This document shows, in pieces, positions 2,902-52,504 of a stretch of DNA of 64,000 nucleotides. The notes under the pieces are model-generated. The model was not told where the DNA came from, made no database searches, and was given only the letters and a program-made list of their open reading frames with translations. The stretch spans positions 467 to 64,466 of the forward strand of contig JBDRNO010000240.1 of NCBI GenBank assembly GCA_043811005.1. Reading direction: 5' to 3'. This stretch comes from Bacteroidota bacterium. GTDB lineage: Bacteria; Bacteroidota; Bacteroidia; NORP154. Every line of letters begins with the position of its first letter. The stretch's first letter is position 1. Made by a program: the position numbers and the translations under genes.

Positions 2902-4653
2902 CTATCTCATACCAGTATTTTCATCAAACAATTTCCCGGGATTTAAGATGCTATTGGGGTCAAAATGCTGTTTTATTGTCTGTAAAATCTTTCTTTCTCC
3001 GGCAGTCAGTTTTTGAAGATACCATTTACGATGGTCTTTACCAATGCCATGATGGTGGCTGATCGCACCCCCATGATCAATGATTGCTTTTGATACAATT
3101 TCCTTAATCTTCAACCATTGGTTCAACTCATTATCTTTTTCCTGTTGTGCCATCAATGTAAAATACAGAGAAGCTCCGGTTTGATAAATATGTGACAAGT
3201 GACAAAAAAGAAGCCCTCCTTTTTCAAAATAATCACTCTCTTTTTTAAGCGAATCTCTAATGTGATGATAAAGGGGTAATAAATCCTTCCAATAGGTTAC
3301 TGTTTCAAACGTATCTATTACAATACGATGTTCTATAAGCGTGTCGCGCAGGTATGGTAATGCAAAACGGTTTTTCTCCCAGTTATCTGAAACAGATGCA
3401 GGAAGCAGCTTTGCCTTGTGAGCTCTTGCGATCTTGGAAGCAACTTTAGATGCAGTTATATCACTCAAATTATTAATGGCAAACCGCATCATCAGAATGC
3501 TGGGATTTTGATATCCTTTTGCTGCTAAATAAGACTTCATCCAGTCTCGGGCAAGTTTTTGAAAACCCTTTTTTTTAGTTTGGCTGAATAGAGACAGCAT
3601 TTTGGTTTCATCAGTATCTGATAACCTGGAGATAGCCGGATGGATACCTGATTGAACAATTTTTTGTAAAGCTGACACTCCGGACTCGAGATCTTTAAAA
3701 AGAGCTACAACCCATTTGTATTTTCCCGGCTTTCGGTGAATACGCATCTTTGCATGGACAATAACACCCAAAGTACCTTCTGAACCGATAAATAACGGAT
3801 GAACATCTATCCCGGAAGCATGCTTTGGAAAATCAGTTTGTTCAATTGTATATCGGGGAGTAACCACTTTTAATCCAAGAACCATATCTTCAATTTTGCC
3901 ATATAGCCCTGATTCCTGCCCTGCCGATCTTGTTGCCAGCCATCCTCCAAGAGTTGAAAATTCGAAGGATTGAGGGAAATGCCCTAAAGTAAATCCCTGC
4001 TCGTAAAGAATTCTCTCGAGTTCCGGGCCATAAATCCCGGCTTCGAAAGTAGCTGTAAGTGAGACAGGGTCAATATCTATCAACCGGTCCATTCTTTTCA
4101 TATTCAAAGAACAAGTCCAATTATCTTCAACTCTACCCATCTGCTCTCTCGATAAAGGGGGGGGAAGTTCCAGCGCGCTGGTGCTCCCTCCCTTCGGGGA
4201 GGGTCGGGGAGGGGCCTCTATTCCTACGGCTCCTGTCACATTGCTGCCTCCACTGAATGTTATTACTGTTATTTGATTCTTCTCAGCTTGCTTAAGGATG
4301 TGAACAACATCATCCACCGATTCGGGGAAAAGAACAAAATCAGGTGCTATTACCTGATCATCAGTAAATATACGGATCGCATCGTGATAGCTCTTTCCAA
4401 AAGCATATCGCAAGCGCTCTTCATTATCAATTGAGAACTGGCTGGGGTTCAATTCAGGAAAAATGGATTTAAAATCCTCTAAAGTGAAGGATGAAACGGT
4501 AAGTGATGAAAGCCGGTCAGGAATTTTAAAATCATCTGCCAATTTTTTTTTCCACTTTTCTTCGAGAAACTGTTTTAATTCAGGAAAATCATTCAAATGA
4601 AAGGACTTTTCAGGGTCACCCCATTTCCACCAGGTTGGCATCATATTACTCAT
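2902..4653 (-). CDS. FAD-linked oxidase, alkyl-dihydroxyacetonephosphate-synthase-like
   Basis: 583 aa with an N-terminal WWKWGDP motif. PCMH-type FAD-binding core (ITFSGGSNVTGAV, GSEGTLGVI) and C-terminal HHHGIG. Carries a GC-rich in-frame insert near 4150-4215. Confidence 0.7.
   Translation of the reverse strand: MSNMMPTWWKWGDPEKSFHLNDFPELKQFLEEKWKKKLADDFKIPDRLSSLTVSSFTLEDFKSIFPELNPSQFSIDNEERLRYAFGKSYHDAIRIFTDDQVIAPDFVLFPESVDDVVHILKQAEKNQITVITFSGGSNVTGAVGIEAPPRPSPKGGSTSALELPPPLSREQMGRVEDNWTCSLNMKRMDRLIDIDPVSLTATFEAGIYGPELERILYEQGFTLGHFPQSFEFSTLGGWLATRSAGQESGLYGKIEDMVLGLKVVTPRYTIEQTDFPKHASGIDVHPLFIGSEGTLGVIVHAKMRIHRKPGKYKWVVALFKDLESGVSALQKIVQSGIHPAISRLSDTDETKMLSLFSQTKKKGFQKLARDWMKSYLAAKGYQNPSILMMRFAINNLSDITASKVASKIARAHKAKLLPASVSDNWEKNRFALPYLRDTLIEHRIVIDTFETVTYWKDLLPLYHHIRDSLKKESDYFEKGGLLFCHLSHIYQTGASLYFTLMAQQEKDNELNQWLKIKEIVSKAIIDHGGAISHHHGIGKDHRKWYLQKLTAGERKILQTIKQHFDPNSILNPGKLFDENTGMR
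4157..4203. repeat. GC-rich hairpin block inside CDS (G8 run, CCAGCGCGCTGG palindrome, CCCTCCC-TTCG-GGGAGGG stem-loop)
   Basis: Read directly: G8 at 4157-4164, 12-nt palindrome at 4170-4181, perfect 7-bp stem with a 4-nt loop at 4186-4203. Translated in frame as PPRPSPKGGSTSALELPPP. Confidence 0.8.
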
Positions 4654-4722: not shown

Positions 4723-6324
4723 TTAAATTCCCTTTAGCTGCTCATCCAATGGTCTGTTCGTATTTCCTTCTTTCTCAGGTATTAACGACATTGCATATTC
4801 ACTTAATGAAGTGATAGTAAGGGCGGGATTGACACCAAGGTTGCAGGGCATAATTGAACCGTCCAGGATATACATATTGGAATAGCCGAAAGCTTCAAAT
4901 TTTTCATTCACAACACCTTCCTCTTTCGTCCTTCCCATTGGGCAGCCACCGAGGATATGGGCGGTTGATGACATATTAAATAAAACTTCTGTAAGCGCAT
5001 TTTGGGATATGCCGTTTACTTTATTAGCATACCTGTGCATTACTTGTTGACCAACGTCAATATAAGCAGGCACCCGGTTTTCCTTTTTATTCCATATTGA
5101 AATTCGGGAAAAAGGAAAACGCTTATAAACCATTTTCATTGAACTATCAAGTGATTGCATTACCAGGAAAATTATGGATTTATGCGCCCATTTTTTATCA
5201 AACAACAGTTTCAGGAACCTGAAAGGATTCTTTAAAATATTAAGTAGTAATTTTAAACTACGAATTACCGGATGCCCCGATCCTGTTGCTAATGTTGCAA
5301 ATAATTTCATTGTATTGGAACCATCGGGGTATTTAACGATCTCAATATGTGTATTTTCATCCGGATTAAATACTGAAGATATCGCTATTCCGTGATTAAG
5401 CTTTTCACCGGAGCTCGTCACTCCGCAAAGGGTCTCTGAATTGGTCCTGAGATTTTCACCGAGCTTTTCGGATAATCCTGTTAGGGTTTTATATTTATAT
5501 TTCTGTTTTAGCAACAGGTCCATTGTTCCGAGAACACCTCCTGAAACAACCAGCCCATTACTAACGTATTTTTTCTTATTCCGTTTAAACCATGATGTAC
5601 TGGAATGAGTATGGATGATGTAACGGTCGTCAATGTATTCAACCCGTTCAACCATCCGTTCCGCTTCTATCTGTACTCCGAAATTTTTGGCGAAGAAAAG
5701 ATAATTCTTATCAAGAGTATTCTTGGCATTCTGCCTGCAACCGACCATACAACCGGCACTTTCATCACAACCTTTACGTTTTGGCCCCAACCCTTTGAAG
5801 TAAGGATCAACTTCCTTTTCAGTATCGCCAAAATAAATACCCACATCCACTCCTTCAAAAGAAGATTCACGCCCCATATCTATTGCTACTTCCTTTAGAA
5901 CTTCATCTGCACGGTCAAATGTTTTGTTTTTTGTTGTCCCAAGCATAAATCGGGCTTTTTCATAAAACGGGATTAAAATTTCTTTCCAATCTTTGAAATG
6001 CGACCAGACGGGATTATTGAAAAATTCATCGGGAGGGAACATGTGGGTATTGGCATAACCCAAGCTGCCCCCTCCTACTCCAACTCCGCTTAGGATAAAA
6101 ACTTCCTTAAAAAAAGATAGCTTTAGAAACCCGAACCATTTGAGCGGAGGAGCCCAAAAATATTTACGAAAATTCAGGTTTGTTTTCGGGAAATCTTCAT
6201 TTCTGTATTCTTTACCTTTTTCAAGGACTAAAACACTATACCCTTTTTCTGCAAGCCGTAGTGCGGATACTGAGCCGCCAAATCCCGACCCAATCACAAT
6301 ATAATCATAAATTTTTTCAGTCAT
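4723..6324 (-). CDS. GMC-family FAD oxidoreductase (cholesterol-oxidase-like)
   Basis: YDYIVIGSGFGGSVSALRLAEKGYSVLVLEKG Rossmann motif near the N-terminus and a GMC C-terminal block DGSIMPCNLGVNPALTI. I prefer the ATG at 6324 over the TTG at 6348, which lies inside a palindrome. Confidence 0.75.
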   Translation of the reverse strand: MTEKIYDYIVIGSGFGGSVSALRLAEKGYSVLVLEKGKEYRNEDFPKTNLNFRKYFWAPPLKWFGFLKLSFFKEVFILSGVGVGGGSLGYANTHMFPPDEFFNNPVWSHFKDWKEILIPFYEKARFMLGTTKNKTFDRADEVLKEVAIDMGRESSFEGVDVGIYFGDTEKEVDPYFKGLGPKRKGCDESAGCMVGCRQNAKNTLDKNYLFFAKNFGVQIEAERMVERVEYIDDRYIIHTHSSTSWFKRNKKKYVSNGLVVSGGVLGTMDLLLKQKYKYKTLTGLSEKLGENLRTNSETLCGVTSSGEKLNHGIAISSVFNPDENTHIEIVKYPDGSNTMKLFATLATGSGHPVIRSLKLLLNILKNPFRFLKLLFDKKWAHKSIIFLVMQSLDSSMKMVYKRFPFSRISIWNKKENRVPAYIDVGQQVMHRYANKVNGISQNALTEVLFNMSSTAHILGGCPMGRTKEEGVVNEKFEAFGYSNMYILDGSIMPCNLGVNPALTITSLSEYAMSLIPEKEGNTNRPLDEQLKGI

Positions 6325-6338
6325 TTTATCTTTAATAT

Positions 6339-6371
6339 AACTTTCCAAAAGTTTAAAACTTTTGGAAAGTT
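6339..6371. repeat. perfect palindrome AACTTTCCAAAAGTT-TAA-AACTTTTGGAAAGTT (15-bp arms)
   Basis: Read directly. The same 15-bp arms occur at 36347-36380 inside the iorA-fusion CDS. Confidence 0.9.
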
Positions 6372-6489: not shown

Positions 6490-7887
6490 TTATAAATCAA
6501 CTTTTTGTAAGGGAGTAACTCTGTTAACAATCTCAAAAGCTGCGGTACTTTCAGATTCAAAAACTTCTACCTTATTTGTCCTCAAATCGGTTAATTCTAT
6601 TTTTAACGCAGCCAGCTTACTGTTGTAGCACCAGAGCTTAGAGTCATCAGTATCGGTATATTCCACAAGAGCTACCTTCCCGGGTGAAGTGGCGATCCCT
6701 TTAAGAGTTGCTGTTGAAGATTTAGCCATAAATTCCCATTTACCTTCACCAAATTCAGATTGAGCGGTGAATAACTTTATCGTTGATGAGAACTCATATC
6801 TTCGTTCACCAACAATGAGAATAAATGAAGAGAGTGGAGGTGTAACTTTGCCGCCTAATTTGATCCGGGCAGACAGTCCTTCAAAGATCACGTTGTCATG
6901 CCCTTTAAAATTATTGCAATGCGCCCATGCCCATGAGTGTGCGCTTTTTTTGCCGTATATATGACCTATCATGCCGGGTTTGTCTTCAATATTAATTGAT
7001 TCCGATCCATTTATAATAGTCCCTGAAAAACGCAGGTCAAGGAAACAGGCGCTATACGTGCTTTTTGCTACATGCAGGGTTTTTACAAAAGGTGGTACAT
7101 GCTCAAACCGGTGGCCATTATCCTTAAACTTAAGATCCCACGAAATACCATCGGCTTGACCAATTGCATTGGCTCCGTCAAGGTGAGCTTTCCCGATGTG
7201 AAAGACCTGGGACAGATCCTGAAACCGTTGTAAATCTTCATTATCCGGAATGATAACACAGTTGGATGGAGCCAGATCACTTAACTTCCAGGTTTGTTTT
7301 CCCACTGCTACATTATCATTATCAAAAAGTAATGCCCATGTACTTGCTTCTTTTTTTACTCCGTCAAGGATAGTATAGCGGAACCATAAAGCCCTGCCTG
7401 GTGAGAGATCAATTTTCCCAAACCAAACTTCATAATGGGGAAATTTCGCGGGCAGAATACGTGCAAATTCCCTGACAAGCCCTTCAGTCACTACAGATGG
7501 ATAAGTTATGAATAGAGTAAACGCTACAAATCCATCAACAACGGCACAAAGAAGCCAGGCAGGACCGCTTGATATAGCAAGTACTATAAATCCAATAACA
7601 CTTATGGTCTTTGCAATAAGAAGCGTTACATAAGGAGCTTTTCGTTCAGGATACCGGGCACTTGTTCCTGCCAATAGCACTAAAGCGCCCATAAGTGAAA
7701 TGGAAAGAACATACCAGAGATTGCCGGTTGGAACCAGGATATCACCGCTCAGTCCAAGAAAGCCAGAAACTGTAATAAGCCATTTGCCCAATTGTGCAGG
7801 GATAGTTATAAACAAGATGCCAACGAATAAAAAGGCAACACACCAGGTTTTAGCAACTTTTGAATATAATTCAGGGTTTTTCTTCAT
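6490..7887 (-). CDS. hypothetical membrane protein (N-terminal TM helices plus soluble C-terminal domain)
   Basis: 465-aa ORF with a hydrophobic N-terminal ~140 aa. No family recognised with confidence; ..HSWAWAHCNNF.. only weakly resembles tocopherol-cyclase-type motifs. Confidence 0.5.
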   Translation of the reverse strand: MKKNPELYSKVAKTWCVAFLFVGILFITIPAQLGKWLITVSGFLGLSGDILVPTGNLWYVLSISLMGALVLLAGTSARYPERKAPYVTLLIAKTISVIGFIVLAISSGPAWLLCAVVDGFVAFTLFITYPSVVTEGLVREFARILPAKFPHYEVWFGKIDLSPGRALWFRYTILDGVKKEASTWALLFDNDNVAVGKQTWKLSDLAPSNCVIIPDNEDLQRFQDLSQVFHIGKAHLDGANAIGQADGISWDLKFKDNGHRFEHVPPFVKTLHVAKSTYSACFLDLRFSGTIINGSESINIEDKPGMIGHIYGKKSAHSWAWAHCNNFKGHDNVIFEGLSARIKLGGKVTPPLSSFILIVGERRYEFSSTIKLFTAQSEFGEGKWEFMAKSSTATLKGIATSPGKVALVEYTDTDDSKLWCYNSKLAALKIELTDLRTNKVEVFESESTAAFEIVNRVTPLQKVDL

Positions 7888-22373: not shown

Positions 22374-22546
22374 GAAATCGCTATTTAGAATATAACATAG
22401 TAATTATTAAAAAGATTTAAATATCTCCCGCTAAGCTCGCTAAGCCCGCAAAGAACGCGATGATTAATTAACATAAAACTTTGTCCGCCAGCTGGCGGAA
22501 GCTTTGCGGAAAATATAAACTTTATTAAATTTTTAATACAATAATT

Positions 22547-33492: not shown

Positions 33493-36400
33493 TCACGAAG
33501 TTAAGTTCTTCTTCTCCACCCACTGAATTGACCTGTTCGGGCAAACGTCAATACACAATCCGCATAGGTTACATATAGTTTCATCTATCACGACCTTTGC
33601 ATCTACTTTTGTCATAGCGGGACAGCCGAAGTTATCAATACAATGATTGCACCAGTAACATGCCTGGTAAAGGTCGAATTGCTGTAATTGTTGTGAAATA
33701 TTTTGGGTTATCTCATTAATCCGAATATCATTCGGATCTACATTTATCCGAATATTATTCGGGTTTACTTTTGATCGAATATTATTCGGACTTACATTTA
33801 GCTTATCTAAGGCATCCTGTCCTTCATAAGCAATTGAATAATCCTCCAGCAATTGCCTAATACCTATTGCTGCTCTTTTGCCGCTTGCAATAGCCCCAAT
33901 GACGCTTATATGGTTTCCTGAACAAGCATCACCTGCTACGAACACCACTGGTTCCGACTGTATCTGCCCCTCTCTCTTCGGTACGACCTGGCTCAGGGTG
34001 GGCTTTTTATATTTTACAAGTCCGTTTTTCTTCTCAATTTTTATTCTTATGTCTTTATCAAATTGCAAAGAATTGATGCCGCTAAAAAGTGTCTTATCCC
34101 CTCTTTGCCCTATTGCCACTATCACATAATCGCATACGATTTTTTGCAAATGTTTTTTGGTTTTAAAAGAACTTAATTTAAAACTAATCTTACCATCAGC
34201 TTTTACCGGGCAGTGTTCAACAAAGCTGTCAGGAACTAATTCGATACCTTCCTCCACAGCATGTTCAATTTCTTCGGCAAAAGCGGGCATTTCTTCAGTG
34301 GTTTCAATGCATGAAACGATAACTCTATTTTTGCTATCCAGCCGTTTTGCCGTTCTCGCAGCATCAATGGCGCTGTTGCCGCCACCTATCAATAAAATTG
34401 AGGAAGCGGGATTCAACTCAAGGGTTTTAAAATAATATTCCCTCAAAAAAGAGAGTGCATCAAACCGTTTCTCACGGGGAATATTCTCTTCAATAATATC
34501 AAGCGTTAATGATTTCGGCATACCTGTTGCCAGTATCACACCGTCATATTTCCCGGTTAATTTGTCAAGAGAGATATCTTTCCCCAGGGAGATGTTATAT
34601 TTAAACTTCACACCTAATTCGCCGAGCTGGGATACTTCAAAGTCAAACCCTTTCTTATCCATACGAAAATCAGGAATAGCATACCTGATAAGCCCCCCTC
34701 CTTGTTTTTCCTTTTCAAAAACTGTTACCTTATAGCCGGCTTGGATAAGGTCATAAGCAGCGCTTAGCCCAGCAGGTCCTGCACCGACTATGGCGATATC
34801 TTTATTTTTCTTTTCAGATGACTTAACGCGTTCTTTGAGAGCGGAAAAATCATAAAAATTCTCATCAATTGAAGATACAAATTTCTTCAATTGCTTAACA
34901 GGTACGACCGGGCCGGTCTCTTTCCCTGTATACAATTCACAGGGACGGTGGCAAATGTCACCACATGTTCGGGCAAACAATATCTTATCCTTAACGATCT
35001 CGAGAGCAGATTTGTAATTTCGATCCATAATGGAATAAAAGAAACTGTGATTACAGATGTTTGCAGGGCATGGCTGCATTTCGCCGGGGATCGAGTACTC
35101 AGCGCTTATTTTTGCTTTTGCCCTTCTCAAATTGCTCCCGGGAGAGTATGTTCTTGAGCATGGCAATGTGTGGTCAAGGTGATTGCCACAATTGGTACAG
35201 AGGTTATGGTCAACAGTGATAATAGCATTTTTCGGGATCTTAGTTTTATGATCAGGATGAAAAATGCAAGGTGATGTGGATACGATCACAGAGACGCCTT
35301 TTACCAAACTGGCATCCCTGATCTTTTCATAGCTGTTTTTCACATCAAACGGATCAATTGTTTCCACATATTGAATCCCCATTCCTTTTAAGAGAGGGGG
35401 AATGTCAATTTCCCGGTATTTGTCAGAGCGGGAAGCTCCGGGATGGTCCTGTCCTCCTGTCATTCCGATTGTACGGTTGTCAAAAATGACGACCATGATA
35501 TTTGCATTAGTATATACGGCATTCATCATGGATGCGATACCTGAGTGGAAGAATGTGCCGTCACCGATAAGGGCTATGGTTTTAGCCCCCCCCCACTTAC
35601 CCGATGTGGAGGAGGAACATAGGGCTTCGGAAAGACCCTGTGCCATGGAGATGCTCATTCCCATGTGGTGAATGGTATCTATCATCTGAATTGGTGGCAG
35701 GGCGCCTAAGCCGAAACAGCCAATGTCACCGCATAGTACTACATTATTGTTATCACGTGGGATGGATAATTTCAAAGCATAGAATGTTGCTCTGTGCGGA
35801 CAACCAGGACAAAGTGAAGGTGGGCGGGGTGGCAGGATAACCTCTCCCACTCCAGACAGGGCAGGGACAAGCGACACCTTCTCCGGGGGAGGGTGGGAGA
35901 GAGAAACAACCGGTGGAAGTTCTTTCTTCCGTTTTAACGGTTGCCCGACAAACTCCTCAACAGCTTGTTTCACAATGTCAATGGAAAATTCGCCAGTGGT
36001 TGCAAGGGAAGAAAATCCTTTACCGAAAATATTGCAATCAATATTATGTTTTTGTGCAATAACGCGCACCTGATCCTCAACTATTGGATCTAATTCCTCA
36101 AGAACTAATATGCGTGGCACGGCTTGAAGCCGTGTCATGCTTTTTTCGGTTTCTAATATGCGTGCCACGGTTTGGAACCGTGTCACGCTTTTGAGAAAAG
36201 GAATGACATTATTTTCAGGAAATGGATGGATCAATCCCAATTTTAAAACTTTAATCTTCCCTGTGAGCTTGTTATCGTACAAAATCTCAGAAAGATAAAC
36301 AGATGAAACACCGCTGCTTATAATACACAGAGAAGGTAAAAATTTCAACTTTCCAAAAGTTTTAGAACTTTTGGAAAGTTCTATATTATGTTTTTCAAAA

Positions 36401-37143
36401 AAAGGAGTAATTATATTGCTGTATAGCTTTTCCAATAACTTTTGATGTGCTGTGGCAGTGCGGGCAGGGATGTTTATATGTCCGGGCATTTTTTCAAATT
36501 TGCCTGGCTGGTTATTAAAAGAAAACTCATTGTAAAAAACCATTCCCCTGCTATGTGACACCCGTGTGGTCATCCTGACTATTACCGGGAGCTTAAGTTT
36601 CCCGGAAAGCACAAAGGCATCCTTTGTCATTGAATAGGCATCCTCGGGAAATGCAGGATTAAAGACAGGTACTGATGCCATCTTTCCCCAGTAGCGGCTG
36701 TCCTGTTCGTTTGAACTGGAATGGCAGCCAGGATCATCGCAGACAACAATGACCAAAGGAGCACAAATCGTCTGGTAGGTAATGGACATCAATGGGTCGG
36801 AAGCGACATTCATCCCCACATTTTTCATACAGCACATTGCACTTTTGTTACCTATGGTATAAGCAATGGCTTTCTCCAAAGCAACTTTTTCGTTTACACT
36901 GTACTCAAAATAAATTGGATTTGATGTCAGTTCAGGAAATTTCTTTTTGTGTCCGGGGTCATTTTGAAATTCACTGACATGATTAAATACCTCAGAAATT
37001 TCAGTAGAAGGGGTGCCTGGATAAGCAAAAACGCCCTGAACCCCGGCTTCAATTGCCCCCCTGGCAATCGCTTCGTTACCGATCGGACAAGTCTTTTGGG
37101 GTTTTTTATAGGAGGTTAGTATTTTGATTATTTTGTCGAACAT
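33493..37143 (-). CDS. iorA: indolepyruvate:ferredoxin oxidoreductase alpha subunit with an inserted GltD/NfnB-like FAD/NAD(P) oxidoreductase module and C-terminal 2x[4Fe-4S] domain
   Basis: N-terminal IorA TPP domains (GVFAYPGTPSTEI; GDIGCFGLG...IGDGTFFHSG...GMTGGQ). The middle is GltD-like (CGDICHRPCE; IAIVGAGPAGLSAAYDL; LLIGGGNSAIDAAR; VFVAGDA). The C-terminus carries CNLCGLCIDVCP. There are four in-frame hairpin/repeat inserts. Confidence 0.75.
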   Translation of the reverse strand: MFDKIIKILTSYKKPQKTCPIGNEAIARGAIEAGVQGVFAYPGTPSTEISEVFNHVSEFQNDPGHKKKFPELTSNPIYFEYSVNEKVALEKAIAYTIGNKSAMCCMKNVGMNVASDPLMSITYQTICAPLVIVVCDDPGCHSSSNEQDSRYWGKMASVPVFNPAFPEDAYSMTKDAFVLSGKLKLPVIVRMTTRVSHSRGMVFYNEFSFNNQPGKFEKMPGHINIPARTATAHQKLLEKLYSNIITPFFEKHNIELSKSSKTFGKLKFLPSLCIISSGVSSVYLSEILYDNKLTGKIKVLKLGLIHPFPENNVIPFLKSVTRFQTVARILETEKSMTRLQAVPRILVLEELDPIVEDQVRVIAQKHNIDCNIFGKGFSSLATTGEFSIDIVKQAVEEFVGQPLKRKKELPPVVSLSHPPPEKVSLVPALSGVGEVILPPRPPSLCPGCPHRATFYALKLSIPRDNNNVVLCGDIGCFGLGALPPIQMIDTIHHMGMSISMAQGLSEALCSSSTSGKWGGAKTIALIGDGTFFHSGIASMMNAVYTNANIMVVIFDNRTIGMTGGQDHPGASRSDKYREIDIPPLLKGMGIQYVETIDPFDVKNSYEKIRDASLVKGVSVIVSTSPCIFHPDHKTKIPKNAIITVDHNLCTNCGNHLDHTLPCSRTYSPGSNLRRAKAKISAEYSIPGEMQPCPANICNHSFFYSIMDRNYKSALEIVKDKILFARTCGDICHRPCELYTGKETGPVVPVKQLKKFVSSIDENFYDFSALKERVKSSEKKNKDIAIVGAGPAGLSAAYDLIQAGYKVTVFEKEKQGGGLIRYAIPDFRMDKKGFDFEVSQLGELGVKFKYNISLGKDISLDKLTGKYDGVILATGMPKSLTLDIIEENIPREKRFDALSFLREYYFKTLELNPASSILLIGGGNSAIDAARTAKRLDSKNRVIVSCIETTEEMPAFAEEIEHAVEEGIELVPDSFVEHCPVKADGKISFKLSSFKTKKHLQKIVCDYVIVAIGQRGDKTLFSGINSLQFDKDIRIKIEKKNGLVKYKKPTLSQVVPKREGQIQSEPVVFVAGDACSGNHISVIGAIASGKRAAIGIRQLLEDYSIAYEGQDALDKLNVSPNNIRSKVNPNNIRINVDPNDIRINEITQNISQQLQQFDLYQACYWCNHCIDNFGCPAMTKVDAKVVIDETICNLCGLCIDVCPNRSIQWVEKKNLTS
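33721..33789. repeat. 3 x 27-bp tandem repeat, each unit carrying the palindrome CCGAATAT[CT]ATTCGG, in frame in CDS
   Basis: Palindromes at 33721-33735, 33748-33762 and 33775-33789. Period is 27 nt, or 9 codons. Translated as SPNNIRSKVNPNNIRINVDPNDIRIN. Confidence 0.9.
35842..35901. repeat. GC-rich inverted repeat CTCTCCCAC...GTGGGAGAG in frame in CDS
   Basis: 9-bp perfect arms plus TCC/GGA, with a ~34-nt spacer. Translated as LSHPPPEKVSLVPALSGVGEV. Confidence 0.8.
36105..36200. repeat. 2 x 48-bp tandem repeat, each with hairpin CACGG[CT]TT[GT]GAA[GA]CCGTG, in frame in CDS
   Basis: Units start at 36105 and 36153 with the same CTAATATGCGTG. Hairpins at 36118-36134 and 36166-36182. 48 nt equals 16 codons. 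Confidence 0.9.
36347..36380. repeat. perfect palindrome AACTTTCCAAAAGTT-TTAG-AACTTTTGGAAAGTT in frame in CDS
   Basis: 15-bp arms identical to the intergenic copy at 6339-6371. Translated as ELSKSSKTFGKLKF. Confidence 0.9.
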
Positions 37144-37489
37144 AAATACAATTTTTCAGCAGAAAAATCCAGCGGGGTAAAAATACGAATAATCTCAGAG
37201 TAAAAATCAATAGTGTCAATGATACATTTACGAGTGAAAATTTATCTGCTGTTCCTACCCCTAAATCCCCTATTTAAAGGTGTTATATTCTATGCTCATA
37301 AATATACGGAAAATTATAATAATTTTGAATTGAAAAACTTACCAGCCTGGACGAATACTTGTCTACGTTCAGGCGTAGGTAAATACCTTGTAGATGTATG
37401 ATTATTGTAGAATAAATGGATTACATATAATCATAATTCCCAGTAGGGGATAAATAAAAAAAGGGAGGGAATTAGAAATTATTTTTTAT

Positions 37490-45087: not shown

Positions 45088-45133
45088 AAAACATGAAGTG
45101 AAATAATTACCTGCGTGAGGGATGGGAGCGACA

Positions 45134-45275
45134 TCCTTTTGTCTGGCTGGCTTAGTTTTGTTGATTTACTCACTCTATTGTTTGTTTTTAAAGGTGTTCG
45201 TGAATGCTTCGCATTTTGAGGGGCGACAGGGGAGCCACGAAAAATCTTTACAAAACTTGCCAGCCAGACAAAAGA
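45134..45275. other. GC-elevated structured element: 16-17-bp perfect inverted repeat enclosing about 108 nt with internal hairpins (possible ncRNA or MITE)
   Basis: CCTTTTGTCTGGCTGGC (45134-45150) pairs with GCCAGCCAGACAAAAG (45259-45274). Inner stems are TTCGTG/CACGAA and AATGC-TTC-GCATT. Confidence 0.5.
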
Positions 45276-45368
45276 TATAGCGGACAGCCCGGCCCCGCAC
45301 ATAATTTTGGTGCTTAAAATTTCATCTGCCAACTGATATGTTACAGATAATTATGATAATGTTAATTG

Positions 45369-48511: not shown

Positions 48512-51500
48512 TTGGACTACAATTTTACAGAAATAGAAAAAAAGTGGCAGAAATACTGGAGTGAGAACAAGACCTTTAAAGCGGATAATCCCGGTAGCAA
48601 AGGGGCTGATAAGCCCAAATTTTATGTTTTGGATATGTTTCCCTATCCTTCCGGAGAAGGGCTGCATGTTGGGCATCCTTTAGGGTACATTGCATCTGAT
48701 GTATATGCCCGATATAAGCGGCTTAAAGGATTTAATGTACTGCATCCCATGGGGTATGATGCTTTTGGCTTGCCTGCAGAGCAATATGCCATTGAAACAG
48801 GTCAGCATCCTGCAATTACTACCCAAAATAATATTAAGCGGTACCGGGAACAAATGGATAAGCTCGGCTTTTCATTTGACTGGGACAGGGAGGTTAGAAC
48901 GTGCGATCCGAAGTATTATAAATGGACGCAGTGGATATTTGTTCAATTATTCAATTCCTGGTATAACAATAAAACAGATAAAGCTGACCCCATTGAGACA
49001 TTGATCTCTGAATTTAAAAAAAATGGAGATCAAAATATTGATGCAGCTAATACTCCTCCCCGAAACGTCTCTAATGGAACAGAGTTACGATCCTTTACCG
49101 CTAAACAGTGGAAGGGGTTTAGTGAAAAACACCAACAAGAAATTCTGTTGCACTATCGCCTGGCATATTTGTCGAAAACGATGGTAAACTGGTGTCCCAG
49201 GTTAGGAACAGTTCTTTCAAATGAGGAAGTACAGAACGGTCTTTCCGAGAGAGGCGGCTATCCGGTTGAAAGAAAACTGATGAAACAATGGACTTTAAGA
49301 ATGACCGCTTATATTGAAAGGTTATTAAAAAGTTTGGAAGAAATTGACTGGACCGATGCTCTTAAAGACATGCAGCGTAACTGGATAGGCCGTTCTGAAG
49401 GAGCTATGATGAAATTCCACCTCTCCCCCGGCCCCTCTCCGAAGGAGAGGGGTGAAATAAGGCCCGGGTACTATACAACTGATGGACAAATGTGGAACCT
49501 TCTGCAAGATAAAGCCAAAGAAATGCGTAGTAACCCTACCCAGGCAGAAAATGCTCTGTGGCAGATGTTGAGAAGAAAGAACACCGGCTATAAAATTCGC
49601 AGGCAACAAATCATTGACCGTTTTATTGTGGATTTCGTTTGTTTGGAAAAAAAGCTGGTAGTTGAAGTTGATGGAGACATTCATGATCTACAAAAAGAAA
49701 AGGATGAAGAAAGAACCTCATTTTTAAATGAAAGAGGATTCAAAGTAATACGCTTCCTGAATAAGGAGATAATCGCAAATACAGATGAGATTCTTGCAAT
49801 AATCGAGGATGAATTAAAAAAAAGACCTTCCTTTAAGAAACAAGAAGTCCTCCCCGCCAGCTGGCGGGAGGATTTAGGAGGGGTGATAGAAGTTTTTACC
49901 ACGCGTCCCGACACTATTTTCGGAGCAACATTTATGGTCTTAGCTCCCGAACACGAATTGGTTGAGAAGATAACTACTGATGAACGCAGGCAGGCAGTGG
50001 AAAAATATGTAAAAGCAGCTTTAAATCGCTCTGAGAGAGACCGGTTGGCTGATGTAAAAATCGTTTCCGGGGAGTTTACCGGTGCATTTGCCATCCATCC
50101 TTTTACTGGCGATAAAATTCCAATTTGGGTAGCGGATTATGTGCTGGCTGGTTACGGGACTGGTGCTATCATGGCTGTTCCGTCAGGTGACCAAAGAGAC
50201 TGGAATTTCGCCAAACATTTTGACCTGCAGATAATCCCGGTTATTTCCGATAGTGACATTACGGAAGGTGCAAATGAGAATGAGGACGGGGTGATGATCA
50301 ATTCAGACTTTATGAATGGCATGAAAATTCCTGATGCTATTAAAGCAGTTATTGAGAAAATCAAAAAAAAAAGGAATAGGAAAGCATAAAGTGAATTACA
50401 AGATAAGGGATGCTGTTTTCAGCCGGCAACGCTATTGGGGTGAGCCGTTTCCCGTTTATTATAAAAATGGTATGCCTTATATATTGGATGAGAGTGAACT
50501 GCCTCTTGTATTACCCATTGTAGATAAATATTTACCAACAGAAACAGGTGAACCGCCATTGGCAAGAGCCGAAAACTGGAAAACAAAAGACGGCTATGAT
50601 CTGGATTGCCATACAATGCCAGGTTGGGCGGGCTCTTCATGGTATTATCTCAGGTATATGGATCCCCACAATGAAAATGAATTTCTGACCAAAAAGGCAG
50701 TTGATTATTGGCAAAATGTTGATCTGTACATCGGTGGAGCCGAGCATGCAACTGGACACCTTATGTACGTGCGTTTCTGGACTAAGTTCCTATATGACCT
50801 TGGTGTCATTCCTTTTGACGAACCGGCTAAAAAGTTGATCAATCAAGGGATGATTCAGGGAATGTCTGCTATCATATATAAGTGCAAAGAAAAAGATACA
50901 TTCGTATCAAGCGATCTGATAAAAGATGCTGATAAAAGTGACTATTTGCCGGTTAGGGTGCACATTGATCTTATTGCAGGAGATAACATAGTAAATGATC
51001 ATGGATTTAAAAATTGGAAACCCGAATATAAAGATGCAAAATTTATTCATAATGAGAATGGAGAATTTCGTTGTGACAGGGAAGTAGAAAAAATGTCTAA
51101 ATCAAAGCATAATGTTGTAAATCCCGACAACATTATTTTACAATACGGAGCGGATACCTTAAGGTTATACGAGATGTTCCTTGGTCCTATTGAGCAGGCA
51201 AAACCCTGGGATACACACGGCATTGAAGGAGTTTCTCGCTTCATGAGAAAATTATGGAGATTATACTACGATAGAGAGGATAAATTCATAGTCTCTGATG
51301 ATAAACCTACCAATAAAGAATTAAAAATATTGCACAGAACTATTAAGAAAGTACAGGAAGACATTAAGCGCTATTCCTTTAATACGGGTGTAAGTGCATT
51401 GATGATCTGTGTTAATGAACTAACTGAATTAAAATGTAACAAAAAAGCTATTTTAGAGGATCTGGCAGTTATTATCTCTCCTTACGCCCCTCATATTACA

Positions 51501-51794
51501 GAGGAATTATGGTCATCATTCAGAGGGATTTCGGATGATAAACAATTCAAAGAAAGTATAAGTAAGGCGGCTTTCCCGCAGTATAAAGAAGAATATATTG
51601 CTGAAGAAACGTGTACATATCCTGTTTCTTTCAATGGTAAAAAGCGATTCACTATAGACCTTCCGGTAGACATGCCCCCTGAAGAAATTGAAAAGGAGGT
51701 GCTGACATACGAAAAGAGCAAAAAATGGCTGAACGGAAAAAAACCTAAAAAGGTGATTATTGTTAAAAAAAGGATTGTTAATATTGTGATTTAA
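48512..51794 (+). CDS. leuS: leucine--tRNA ligase, split into two ORFs by a frameshift in an A10 run and carrying an in-frame DUF559 insert
   Basis: [21 protein letters not shown] (HIGH), [41 protein letters not shown] and KMSKSK are all present. ORFs 48512..50389 and 50334..51794 join if one A of 50363-50372 is removed. TTG start. Confidence 0.9.
49421..49882 (+). other. 462-nt in-frame insert in leuS encoding a complete DUF559 (Vsr-like PD-(D/E)XK endonuclease) domain, bounded by GC-rich hairpins
   Basis: Insert peptide [11 protein letters not shown]...[58 protein letters not shown]...[20 protein letters not shown]...[10 protein letters not shown]. Left hairpin CCCCTCTCC-GAA-GGAGAGGGG (49432-49452). 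Right 16-nt palindrome CCCGCCAGCTGGCGGG (49853-49868). Confidence 0.8.
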
Positions 51795-52328: not shown

Positions 52329-52504
52329 TGGAAGATTATATAGTGTCCGTCTATAAAGTCCGAATGTTTAAATGAATAATTAAAACCACAAATAACAAGC
52401 ACCAAATAACAAAGAAATCACAATTACCGAAAATTCAATGACCAATCCGCAAGCTGGCGGACGGACATTTGATAAGTTGTCTAAAAAACAGTTTGTCAGT
52501 TAGA

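Follow-up and report, generated by a model that had tools for sequence, protein, structure and literature searches.

An in-frame nuclease cassette in leuS

The window analysed here, a stretch of 64,000 nucleotides from a contig of a Bacteroidota bacterium (JBDRNO010000240.1), contains a leuS gene, encoding leucyl-tRNA synthetase (LeuRS), into which a 468 nt cassette has been inserted without loss of the reading frame. The cassette encodes a nuclease domain of the DUF559 family and has GC-rich, hairpin-forming ends. The features of the locus are as follows.

48512–50389, + strand: leuS reading frame 1 (from the list of open reading frames), comprising the N-terminal catalytic half, the cassette and the CP1 editing domain
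49418–49885, + strand: whole cassette, 468 nt, 156 codons, in frame, with neither a start nor a stop codon of its own
49418–49452, + strand: 5′ end module, with C-rich outer box CACCTCTCC (49418–49426) and hairpin CCCCTCTCC-GAA-GGAGAGGGG (49432–49452)
49469–49822, + strand: nuclease core, 118 codons, a family-specific N-terminal helix followed by a DUF559/Vsr-like PD-(D/E)XK domain
49849–49885, + strand: 3′ end module, with hairpin CCTCC(C)CGCC-AGCT-GGCGGGAGG (49849–49871), GATTTA and G-rich outer box GGAGGGGTG (49877–49885)
50363–50372, + strand: A10 homopolymer, which breaks the leuS frame
50373–51794, + strand: leuS reading frame 2, comprising the C-terminal catalytic part and the anticodon-binding domain

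The leuS open reading frame (ORF; 48512–50389) is free of stop codons throughout 49421–49882, the interval in which a first-pass annotation, made from the sequence alone, had reported an open in-frame insertion of 154 codons. Alignment with Thermus thermophilus LeuRS (PDB 1H3N) bears out the insertion: the two proteins are colinear up to chain residue 235 and again from chain residue 243, and 155 residues of the window protein replace a 7-residue loop of 1H3N at the entrance of the CP1 editing domain. The cassette fills this gap relative both to solved LeuRS structures and to leuS genes that lack the insert. Its extent was revised to 49418–49885, or 156 codons, after comparison with related cassettes and their inverted repeats, and limits defined through inverted repeats are approximate, to within a few bases. 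The edges read CAC CTC ... GGG GTG, and the junctions in the protein are ...KF|HLSP and ...LGGV|IEVF. Pfam reports tRNA-synt_1, DUF559 and the LeuRS editing domain in reading frame 1, and NCBIfam reports leuS_bact. The translation is identical to MFH1321373.1, recorded as 'MAG: DUF559 domain-containing protein [Bacteroidota bacterium]' (MAG, metagenome-assembled genome), such that the source record names this N-terminal leuS fragment solely by its DUF559 domain. Searches of the window with the insert (tblastn and blastn) found no further copy of the cassette.

Downstream of the cassette the A10 run splits leuS into ORFs of 625 and 486 codons. The second of these (50334–51794) is opened by an ATG at 50334 and matches the Pfam families Anticodon_1 and tRNA-synt_1. 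With either 9 or 12 A residues in the run a single LeuRS of 1093 residues is obtained, and this corrected translation has no internal stop. Among the homopolymers scanned in the window (A/T of at least 8, G/C of at least 7), A10 is the only one placed where one long open frame overlaps the next. An error of assembly, a site of slippage and a real two-piece LeuRS are each possible; the repaired protein has no close relative, its best full-length match being 63% identical.

The nuclease domain

The DUF559 domain is complete, as had been proposed: the match to PF04480 has an E-value of 2.6e-35 and a score of 121 bits against a cut-off of 20.6, and covers profile positions 4–108 of 109. The core is separated from the host protein by spacers of 17 residues on the N-terminal and 21 residues on the C-terminal side. 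A profile built from 30 cassette cores matches the DUF559 structure PDB 3HRL (E=1.2e-30) and, over profile positions 45–115, the catalytic domain of the homing endonuclease I-Bth0305I (3R3P, E=6.9e-6). The catalytic residues (E27, D55, E66, D68, H72 and D79 in core numbering) are all preserved in the window copy, as they are in 92 of 92 cassettes of a close-relative sample, which consists of the cassettes nearest to that of the window in genome and metagenome scans; within the 30-core profile set the first five are invariant and D79 is nearly so. They correspond to the catalytic set of Vsr and I-Bth0305I (Vsr E25, D51, H64, H69 and D97; Taylor et al. 2011, PMC3239194). The ratio of nonsynonymous to synonymous substitution rates (dN/dS) is 0.06–0.12 in 11 of the 12 cassette pairs for which it could be computed and 0.36 in the remaining one, a very close pair. 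Judged from these ratios, the nuclease is under strong purifying selection.

DUF559 is the sole protein domain found in the cassette, and no known transposase of the DDE, HUH, serine or tyrosine type was detected in it. An enzyme hidden in another frame or on the other strand, as in the phage ShiLan element discussed below, was considered and rejected; the two antisense ORFs overlapping the cassette (49325–49684 and 49681–50094) have no Pfam match.

An AlphaFold model of LeuRS residues 215–625, made with an alignment of 71 sequences, has a mean per-residue confidence (pLDDT) of 85.8. The nuclease domain is modelled with a pLDDT of 90–97 and the linkers encoded by the cassette ends with values of at most 50 (model residues 95–104 and 230–233), while the LeuRS parts superpose on solved LeuRS. 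A fold search with the model returned LeuRS structures only, and nothing on the nuclease. The nuclease is thus predicted to be a folded domain on flexible tethers, in keeping with the earlier suggestion of a domain carried in a surface loop.

Structure of the cassette ends

At its 5′ end the window cassette has the order CACCTCTCC-CCCGG-hairpin, and the module is translated as a 12-residue Pro/Ser/Gly linker, one of the segments with pLDDT of at most 50 in the model. The hairpin CCCCTCTCC-GAA-GGAGAGGGG had no match in 100 shuffled sequences, and its single-strand DNA fold of −13.3 kcal/mol has a z of −2.3 relative to shuffles. The 3′ hairpin (z=−2.8 for the single-strand fold) includes a 16-nt palindrome, CCCGCCAGCTGGCGGG at 49853–49868, that is absent from shuffled sequence; its loop contains an additional palindrome, GCCAGCTGGC, and the 3′ tail GGAGGATTTAGGAGGGGT is common to the LeuRS cassettes L009 and L100. 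The 3′ module, too, is translated as 12 residues. Both the hairpin and the palindrome had been recognised in the first-pass annotation as the ends of the insert. The outer boxes of the window cassette can pair over 9 bp, one G-U pair included, and the predicted RNA fold of the element is closed by a stem between them.

The same layout is found across the family. Both ends consist of a module some 33 bp long, made up of a C-rich outer box, a spacer of 2–4 nt and a hairpin with a pyrimidine-only stem of 7–9 bp and a loop of 3–5 nt, the 3′ module repeating the 5′ module in reverse complement. The outer box is CCTCACCCC, CACCTCCCCC, AACCCCACCCC, GCCCCCCC or TCCTATCCCC according to lineage. At locus L005, for example, the ends are CACCTCCCCCTGGCCCCCTCCAAAAGAGGGGG ... 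CCCCCTCTTTTGGAGGGGGACAGGGGGAGGTG, and those of L096 are perfectly complementary, at 32 of 32 nt. Of 92 elements, 68 have an end-to-end alignment score higher than that of any of 20 shuffles (medians of 30 for the elements and 20 for the shuffles). Hairpin stems vary between lineages while pairing is always kept, and the GC-rich modules are free of stop codons in every frame, encoding Pro/Ser/Gly-rich peptides such as LTPNPSPKERG and PLSFGEGxGGE. Near-perfect complementarity of the two ends cannot be attributed to selection on the peptide and is a feature of the DNA or RNA. End types follow nuclease lineages across different host genes; the type GCCCCCCC(A/G)CCCCCC, for instance, is common to cassettes in MetH, in methionyl-tRNA synthetase (MetRS) and in other genes of Ferruginibacter-like genomes. 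At well-defined cassette junctions no consistent target-site duplication was found and no common target motif was evident; the flanks are simply AT-rich.

The first-pass annotation had also placed hairpins of the same types in intergenic DNA of the window, which holds in part. Two looser relatives of the 3′-hairpin palindrome are intergenic, TCCGCCAGCTGGCGGA (22484–22499) and TCCGCAAGCTGGCGGA (52446–52461), whereas the 5′ hairpin is unique in the window and its closest relative (4186–4203) lies in frame within a gene. The intergenic palindromes have the core CCGCCAGCTGGCGG in common with the palindrome of the 3′ hairpin, and palindromes with this core contain a PvuII-type CAGCTG. They may represent a separate small palindrome family of this genome.

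Cassettes in LeuRS of other genomes

In a scan of one genome per species, seven assemblies proved to have a leuS gene whose corresponding loop holds a cassette, namely those of a Bacteroidota bacterium, Bacteroidales UBA1309, a Prevotella sp., Dysgonomonas sp. 521, a Flavobacteriaceae, a Flavobacteriales and a MAG labelled Paceibacterota, although MAG taxonomy labels are possibly wrong. In each, leuS is a single open frame of 937–1189 codons, and Dysgonomonas sp. 521 is an isolate, such that the arrangement is translatable within LeuRS. About 70 other LeuRS loci have only a loop of 6–7 residues at the cassette site. When the repaired 1093-residue LeuRS was used as the query, 117 of the best 120 protein clusters were proteins of 1060–1256 residues with PF04480, mostly annotated plainly as 'leucine--tRNA ligase' and in some cases encoded on contigs of 3.4 and 4.8 Mb. 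An initial search had returned only proteins of at most 409 residues, suggesting that all cassette-bearing LeuRS are broken; the many full-length proteins found by an exhaustive search and with the repaired query led us to reject this idea, and the ceiling on size probably reflects a length limit of the initial search in relation to its 234-residue query.

Evidence of insertion comes from two close relatives. The LeuRS proteins of L007, which has a cassette, and L023, which has none, are 95% identical, the DNA is about 90% identical around the site, and the insertion is clean; the L023-type site without a cassette has the flanks ...TTCAAGGTT / GTGTTTACTACAAGGCC.... This comparison shows that the cassette is gained or lost between close relatives and, together with the short loop of most LeuRS, that it is an insertion and not ancestral, as the first reading of the sequence had assumed.

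Other host genes and recurrent sites

The cassette is not confined to LeuRS. In the 92-cassette sample, 79 lie within open frames that extend for at least 60 codons on either side, 8 stand alone and 5 are one-sided. The host sites in this sample are listed here with the numbers of cassettes.

LeuRS site 1, 6–21 nt upstream of the FTTRPDT codons: 43 cassettes
LeuRS site 2, before an 11-residue motif: 3 cassettes
MetH, before GDVHDIGKNIV: 7 cassettes
RecG, after DEQHRFGV: 6 cassettes
MetRS, before FDAPIGY: 3 cassettes
Cupin-type enzyme with an HWH...K motif: 3 cassettes
Acetyl-CoA synthetase, after TSGSTGKPKG: 2 cassettes
Other hosts (a host common to L133 and L145, TsaB, MetRS site B, MetH site B, valyl- or isoleucyl-tRNA synthetase, and one-offs): 17 cassettes

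The recurrent sites each adjoin a strongly conserved motif of the host protein. The first search added TsaB, an RluA-type pseudouridine synthase, an RsmI-like methylase, TsaE, guanylate kinase, chorismate synthase and MetRS as hosts. When the insert was used in an exhaustive search, DUF559 turned up in the interior of many long proteins, among which Pfam identified as hosts RecJ (with a split DHH domain), several TPR/PAS-SpoIIE phosphatases, trehalase, adenine deaminase and LeuRS at a second site. Type ISP/Eco57I restriction enzymes were found as well, and their DUF559 domains may be ordinary fusions. The cassette proposed from the window sequence belongs to a family with a common end structure, found in frame at the same site of no fewer than 117 LeuRS clusters and in roughly a dozen further hosts.

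One MetRS gene, in a Ferruginibacter MAG (L011), contains two cassettes at different sites (6001–6357 and 7225–7581); their end types differ, and the closest matches of each are cassettes in other genes.

Relationships among cassettes, and solo end-modules

The nearest relatives of the window cassette are not in LeuRS but in acetyl-CoA synthetase (66%) and TsaB (63%). Similarity of the window cassette to those of L009 and L085 (0.63 and 0.62) is greater than the similarity of the host LeuRS proteins (0.51 and 0.50), and cassette similarity exceeds host similarity in 82 of 741 pairs. Such an excess in sequence similarity suggests horizontal transfer. In 59 of 73 cases, nevertheless, a nuclease and its nearest relative occupy the same host site, which fits site-specific lineages. 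A scan of viral contigs found only distant relatives, with at most 48% identity and one full-length match, and gives no support to phage-borne spread.

Remnants of cassettes are present as well. In a Bacteroidales leuS (L014) an internal deletion has left the 5′ module and 16 nuclease codons, after which LeuRS resumes. Two Fluviicola leuS genes (L069 and L073) have a single end-module at site 1, and at L003 (6898–7380) leuS has a full cassette at site 1, a solo module at site 2 and two more elsewhere in the gene. Outside the analysed cassette intervals, 46 pyrimidine-stem GC hairpins were counted in 1.37 Mb of loci, a number to which the L003 cassette, left out by the core filter, contributes its two ends; 39 of them lie inside ORFs of at least 150 codons. 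By a rough hand count of the LeuRS-centred loci, about 10 of 14 solo modules are inside leuS, which makes up about a quarter of that DNA.

The window has one such module of its own.

4150–4215, − strand: solo end-module with a C-rich box, hairpin CCCTCCC-CGAA-GGGAGGG and palindrome CCAGCGCGCTGG, without a nuclease

This module is in frame within a gene for an alkyl-DHAP-synthase-like FAD oxidase (ORF 2902–4653), where it is read as ...EAPPRPSPKGGSTSALELPPPL...; the GC-rich insert spans about 84 nt, and the protein has 33 residues at this point against 5 in the structure 2UUU. A weaker candidate is a GC-rich in-frame stretch at 35791–35934 (− strand; ...LSHPPPEKVSLVPALSGVGEV...) with 9-bp inverted ends, CTCTCCCAC...GTGGGAGAG, which may be a decayed pair of end-modules. 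It lies in ORF 33496–37155 (− strand), which we take from motifs such as PPRPPSLCPGCPHR to encode a large indolepyruvate-oxidoreductase-like protein.

At L092, about 300 nt upstream of the LeuRS cassette, leuS contains an in-frame tandem array in which a 13-residue unit encoded by a hairpin, EVPSRGEGSNLNP, is present at least 5 times; tandem amplification of end-module hairpins is apparently possible.

Other insertions in LeuRS and other features of the window

Two further insertions in LeuRS were noted. Window positions 48953–49156 (LeuRS residues 148–216) encode a segment of about 68 residues without a counterpart in Thermus LeuRS. It has no GC-rich ends, and it is common to the Bacteroidota LeuRS inspected (e.g. 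P0015 and P0036), which indicates an older, fixed, lineage-specific insertion. In some cassette-bearing LeuRS proteins (P0143 and P0144) the editing domain itself contains a NUDIX hydrolase domain, at about residues 520–643, and this is a second, unrelated domain insertion. Elsewhere in the window, a Flavo-1 RNA (Rfam RF01705) was found at 45105–45298 on the + strand with 43.8 bits against a gathering score of 42, which fits a source of Bacteroidota or Flavobacteriia type.

Comparison with known elements

A literature search found no account of DUF559 cassettes within housekeeping genes, but coverage of subscription journals was thin and an earlier description is possible. The proteins themselves are already public, under ordinary names.

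Inteins with homing endonucleases are similar in several respects. They too are in frame, lack a start and a stop codon of their own and are translated with the host; they occupy sites next to highly conserved motifs, in genes that are essential or have housekeeping functions, and their distribution is sporadic; and the nuclease fold of the cassette includes proven homing enzymes. However, the cassette lacks a Hint domain (blocks A, B, F and G), has neither a Cys, Ser or Thr at the junctions nor a terminal His-Asn, and differs freely from host to host in its junction residues; for want of this domain and these nucleophiles, it is most likely retained in the mature protein. Inteins, moreover, lack the inverted-repeat hairpin ends of the cassette.

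The Vsr-like (EDxHD) homing endonucleases, exemplified by I-Bth0305I, have a homologous catalytic domain with the conserved E, D, H and D residues. These are multidomain proteins with a long N-terminal DNA-binding part and their own start and stop codons, encoded in group I introns or free-standing between split inteins (Dassa 2009, PMC2677866; Taylor et al. 2011, PMC3239194), whereas the cassette nuclease has about 118 residues, is associated with neither an intron nor an intein and is fused into the host protein.

The nearest conceptual precedent that we found is ShiLan, in which an HNH nuclease with its own GTG start and TAA stop is encoded in another frame of an insertion within the DNA methylase gene of a phage, the host gene being non-essential (Arsenault et al. 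2025, PMC11855218). Like the cassettes, the ShiLan insertion is in frame, free of stop codons and homing-like in behaviour; splicing has been detected in neither, whether of RNA or of protein, and each is predicted to protrude from the host protein as a loop. The cassettes differ in that the nuclease is in the host frame and of another fold, the hosts are cellular housekeeping genes and the ends are inverted repeats.

[quoted passage not shown] A description of this type fits the solo end-modules, such as that at 4150–4215 of the window, but not the nuclease-bearing cassette. With insertion sequences and transposons the cassette family shares terminal inverted repeats, but not a known transposase or target-site duplications. 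In systems of repetitive extragenic palindromic (REP) sequences, their paired forms (REPINs) and REP-associated tyrosine transposases (RAYTs), hairpin units occur singly and as inverted pairs, and the enzyme gene is flanked by two inverted units, a layout like that of the cassette. RAYTs are HUH tyrosine transposases, however, and REPs lie outside genes, while the cassette enzyme is a PD-(D/E)XK nuclease with its units in frame within coding sequence.

Alternative explanations

We consider it very probable that the element is a mobile, selfish cassette translated in frame with its host gene, and likely, with somewhat less assurance, that positions 49418–49885 of the window are specifically a non-splicing, homing-endonuclease-like selfish cassette translated through the host protein. 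Its parts are a GC-rich end module, a start- and stop-less Vsr-like (EDxHD-type) nuclease gene and an inverted copy of the end module. We rate it as unlikely that the nuclease has instead been domesticated for DNA repair, defence or RNA processing, with abundant housekeeping proteins as its carriers. The low dN/dS values and the preservation of the catalytic residues in all 92 cassettes over large divergence would be expected of a co-opted domain, as would more than 100 full-length LeuRS fusions and the small number of degenerate nuclease cores seen, although decayed copies are under-sampled because the search was seeded with an intact core. Yet the same cassette occurs in functionally unrelated enzymes, its distribution is patchy even between LeuRS proteins that are 95% identical, most LeuRS genes have none, remnants and footprints occur, and no defence-system model of PADLOC was matched, so that a defence system was among the readings rejected. 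It is more doubtful still that the window leuS is a dead gene or the insertion a mis-assembly. The source is a MAG, and the +1 frameshift in the A10 run, which the first-pass annotation had not noticed when it named a pseudogene as a ground for refutation, does touch the window copy; but both halves of leuS are intact and conserved apart from this one homopolymer base, the run is uniquely placed at the overlap of two long open frames, and intact ORFs with the same arrangement in many assemblies, including an isolate and megabase contigs, show that the arrangement is viable.

There remain the readings in which the nuclease is incidental or the insert is removed. If the hairpin modules were themselves the mobile unit, moved by an enzyme encoded elsewhere as MITEs are, a DUF559 gene might have come to lie between two of them by chance. 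Solo end-modules in frame, in both orientations and in many genes (the 46 hairpins in 1.37 Mb, and 4150–4215 in the window) are what such a unit would leave, and the enzyme-less Rickettsia palindromic elements can likewise insert in frame (PMC10969869). Against this, the gene bracketed by module pairs was a DUF559 nuclease in a set that was itself chosen by nuclease similarity, the nuclease is strongly selected, end types follow nuclease lineages across hosts, and no other transposase was noted beside the cassettes in flanks of 3–10 kb, which were not scanned systematically; we think it improbable that the nuclease is a passenger of this kind. An intervening sequence of a new kind, excised from the mRNA by pairing of the inverted ends so as to join the junctions, or else from the protein, would share the niche of inteins, in frame beside conserved motifs of essential genes, and the predicted RNA fold of the window element does close with an outer-box stem. 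Nevertheless, the 156-residue insert has no Hint or intein family in Pfam at E of at most 1, and no Cys, Ser or Thr nucleophile is conserved at the junctions across hosts, on which grounds an intein was rejected. Group I and II introns and other known RNAs were likewise rejected; besides Flavo-1, an Rfam scan of the whole window at gathering thresholds and a permissive scan of 49200–50100 gave only chance-level matches to small RNAs. Moreover, stop-free continuity with both flanks in 79 of 92 cassettes implies that ribosomes must read through, which an excised RNA would not need. Excision in any form is thus highly improbable.

Several observations nonetheless weigh against a selfish, homing-like cassette. 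Long-term purifying selection, with dS of up to about 2, fits co-option by the host equally well. With only about 22 extra residues N-terminal of the core there is no large DNA-binding region, and recognition of a long specific target by some 118 residues is hard to explain. The same-site relatives in 59 of 73 cases also mean that much of the distribution could reflect vertical descent and loss, and the share of the LeuRS site is inflated, since the sample was seeded with the window's LeuRS cassette and its loci ranked by similarity to it. As for the window copy, the end-to-end alignment score of 16 is not above that of shuffles (19), with only the 9-bp boxes and the hairpin layout matching; as its ends are degenerate, the copy may no longer be mobile, and from its sequence it looks like an older insertion whose ends have diverged. 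Because leuS is frameshifted, moreover, the protein of this copy may not form one chain. Lastly, the mechanism of movement is proposed by analogy, and homing alone leaves the inverted-repeat ends without explanation. Taken together, the evidence favours a tolerated selfish element, with strong purifying selection leaving co-option possible.

Proposed mechanism and significance

For a selfish cassette of this kind the following cycle can be envisaged. The cassette would be expressed solely within translated LeuRS and retained in the protein, and since its ends are read as flexible Pro/Ser/Gly linkers the nuclease would fold as a separate domain and LeuRS would still work. The nuclease would cut cassette-free copies of the target gene beside the conserved motif, and repair from a cassette-bearing copy would install the cassette, as in the homing of inteins but without later splicing; rare moves to new genes would have seeded the other host sites. 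By analogy with inteins, homing may be the main route, to which we give a little less than an even chance; it accounts for the recurrent sites and for the intein-like choice of targets. The palindromic inverted-repeat ends are probably involved in the moves and may be binding or cutting sites of a dimeric nuclease. Action of the nuclease on its own ends is a more tentative idea; an end-directed model accounts for the repeats, the solo modules and the end types common across genes, but we know of no precedent for end-directed mobility by a purely hydrolytic PD-(D/E)XK enzyme. Equally tentative is the suggestion that the family forms a new class of bacterial mobile element, in which a start- and stop-less nuclease gene with palindromic inverted repeats spreads into coding sequence and is expressed wholly by the host, both target genes and the cassette's own ends are substrates of the nuclease, and the solo modules are non-autonomous derivatives. 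If true, mobility would be driven by a PD-(D/E)XK nuclease with no other enzyme, and inteins would have a counterpart that does not splice and that remodels essential proteins throughout the Bacteroidota.

Inteins and self-splicing introns are thought to be able to invade essential genes only because they remove themselves by splicing. The family described here suggests another route, in which a nuclease resides permanently inside LeuRS, MetRS, MetH or RecG as a linker-borne domain while itself staying active and mobile. If confirmed, it would add to the known selfish elements and would give a testable role to DUF559, a very large family of unknown function, and compact nucleases whose natural targets lie in conserved genes may be obtained from it. 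The family also bears on the annotation and quality checking of metagenome-assembled genomes, and would account for many of the 'DUF559 domain-containing' or over-long housekeeping proteins in annotations of the Bacteroidota.

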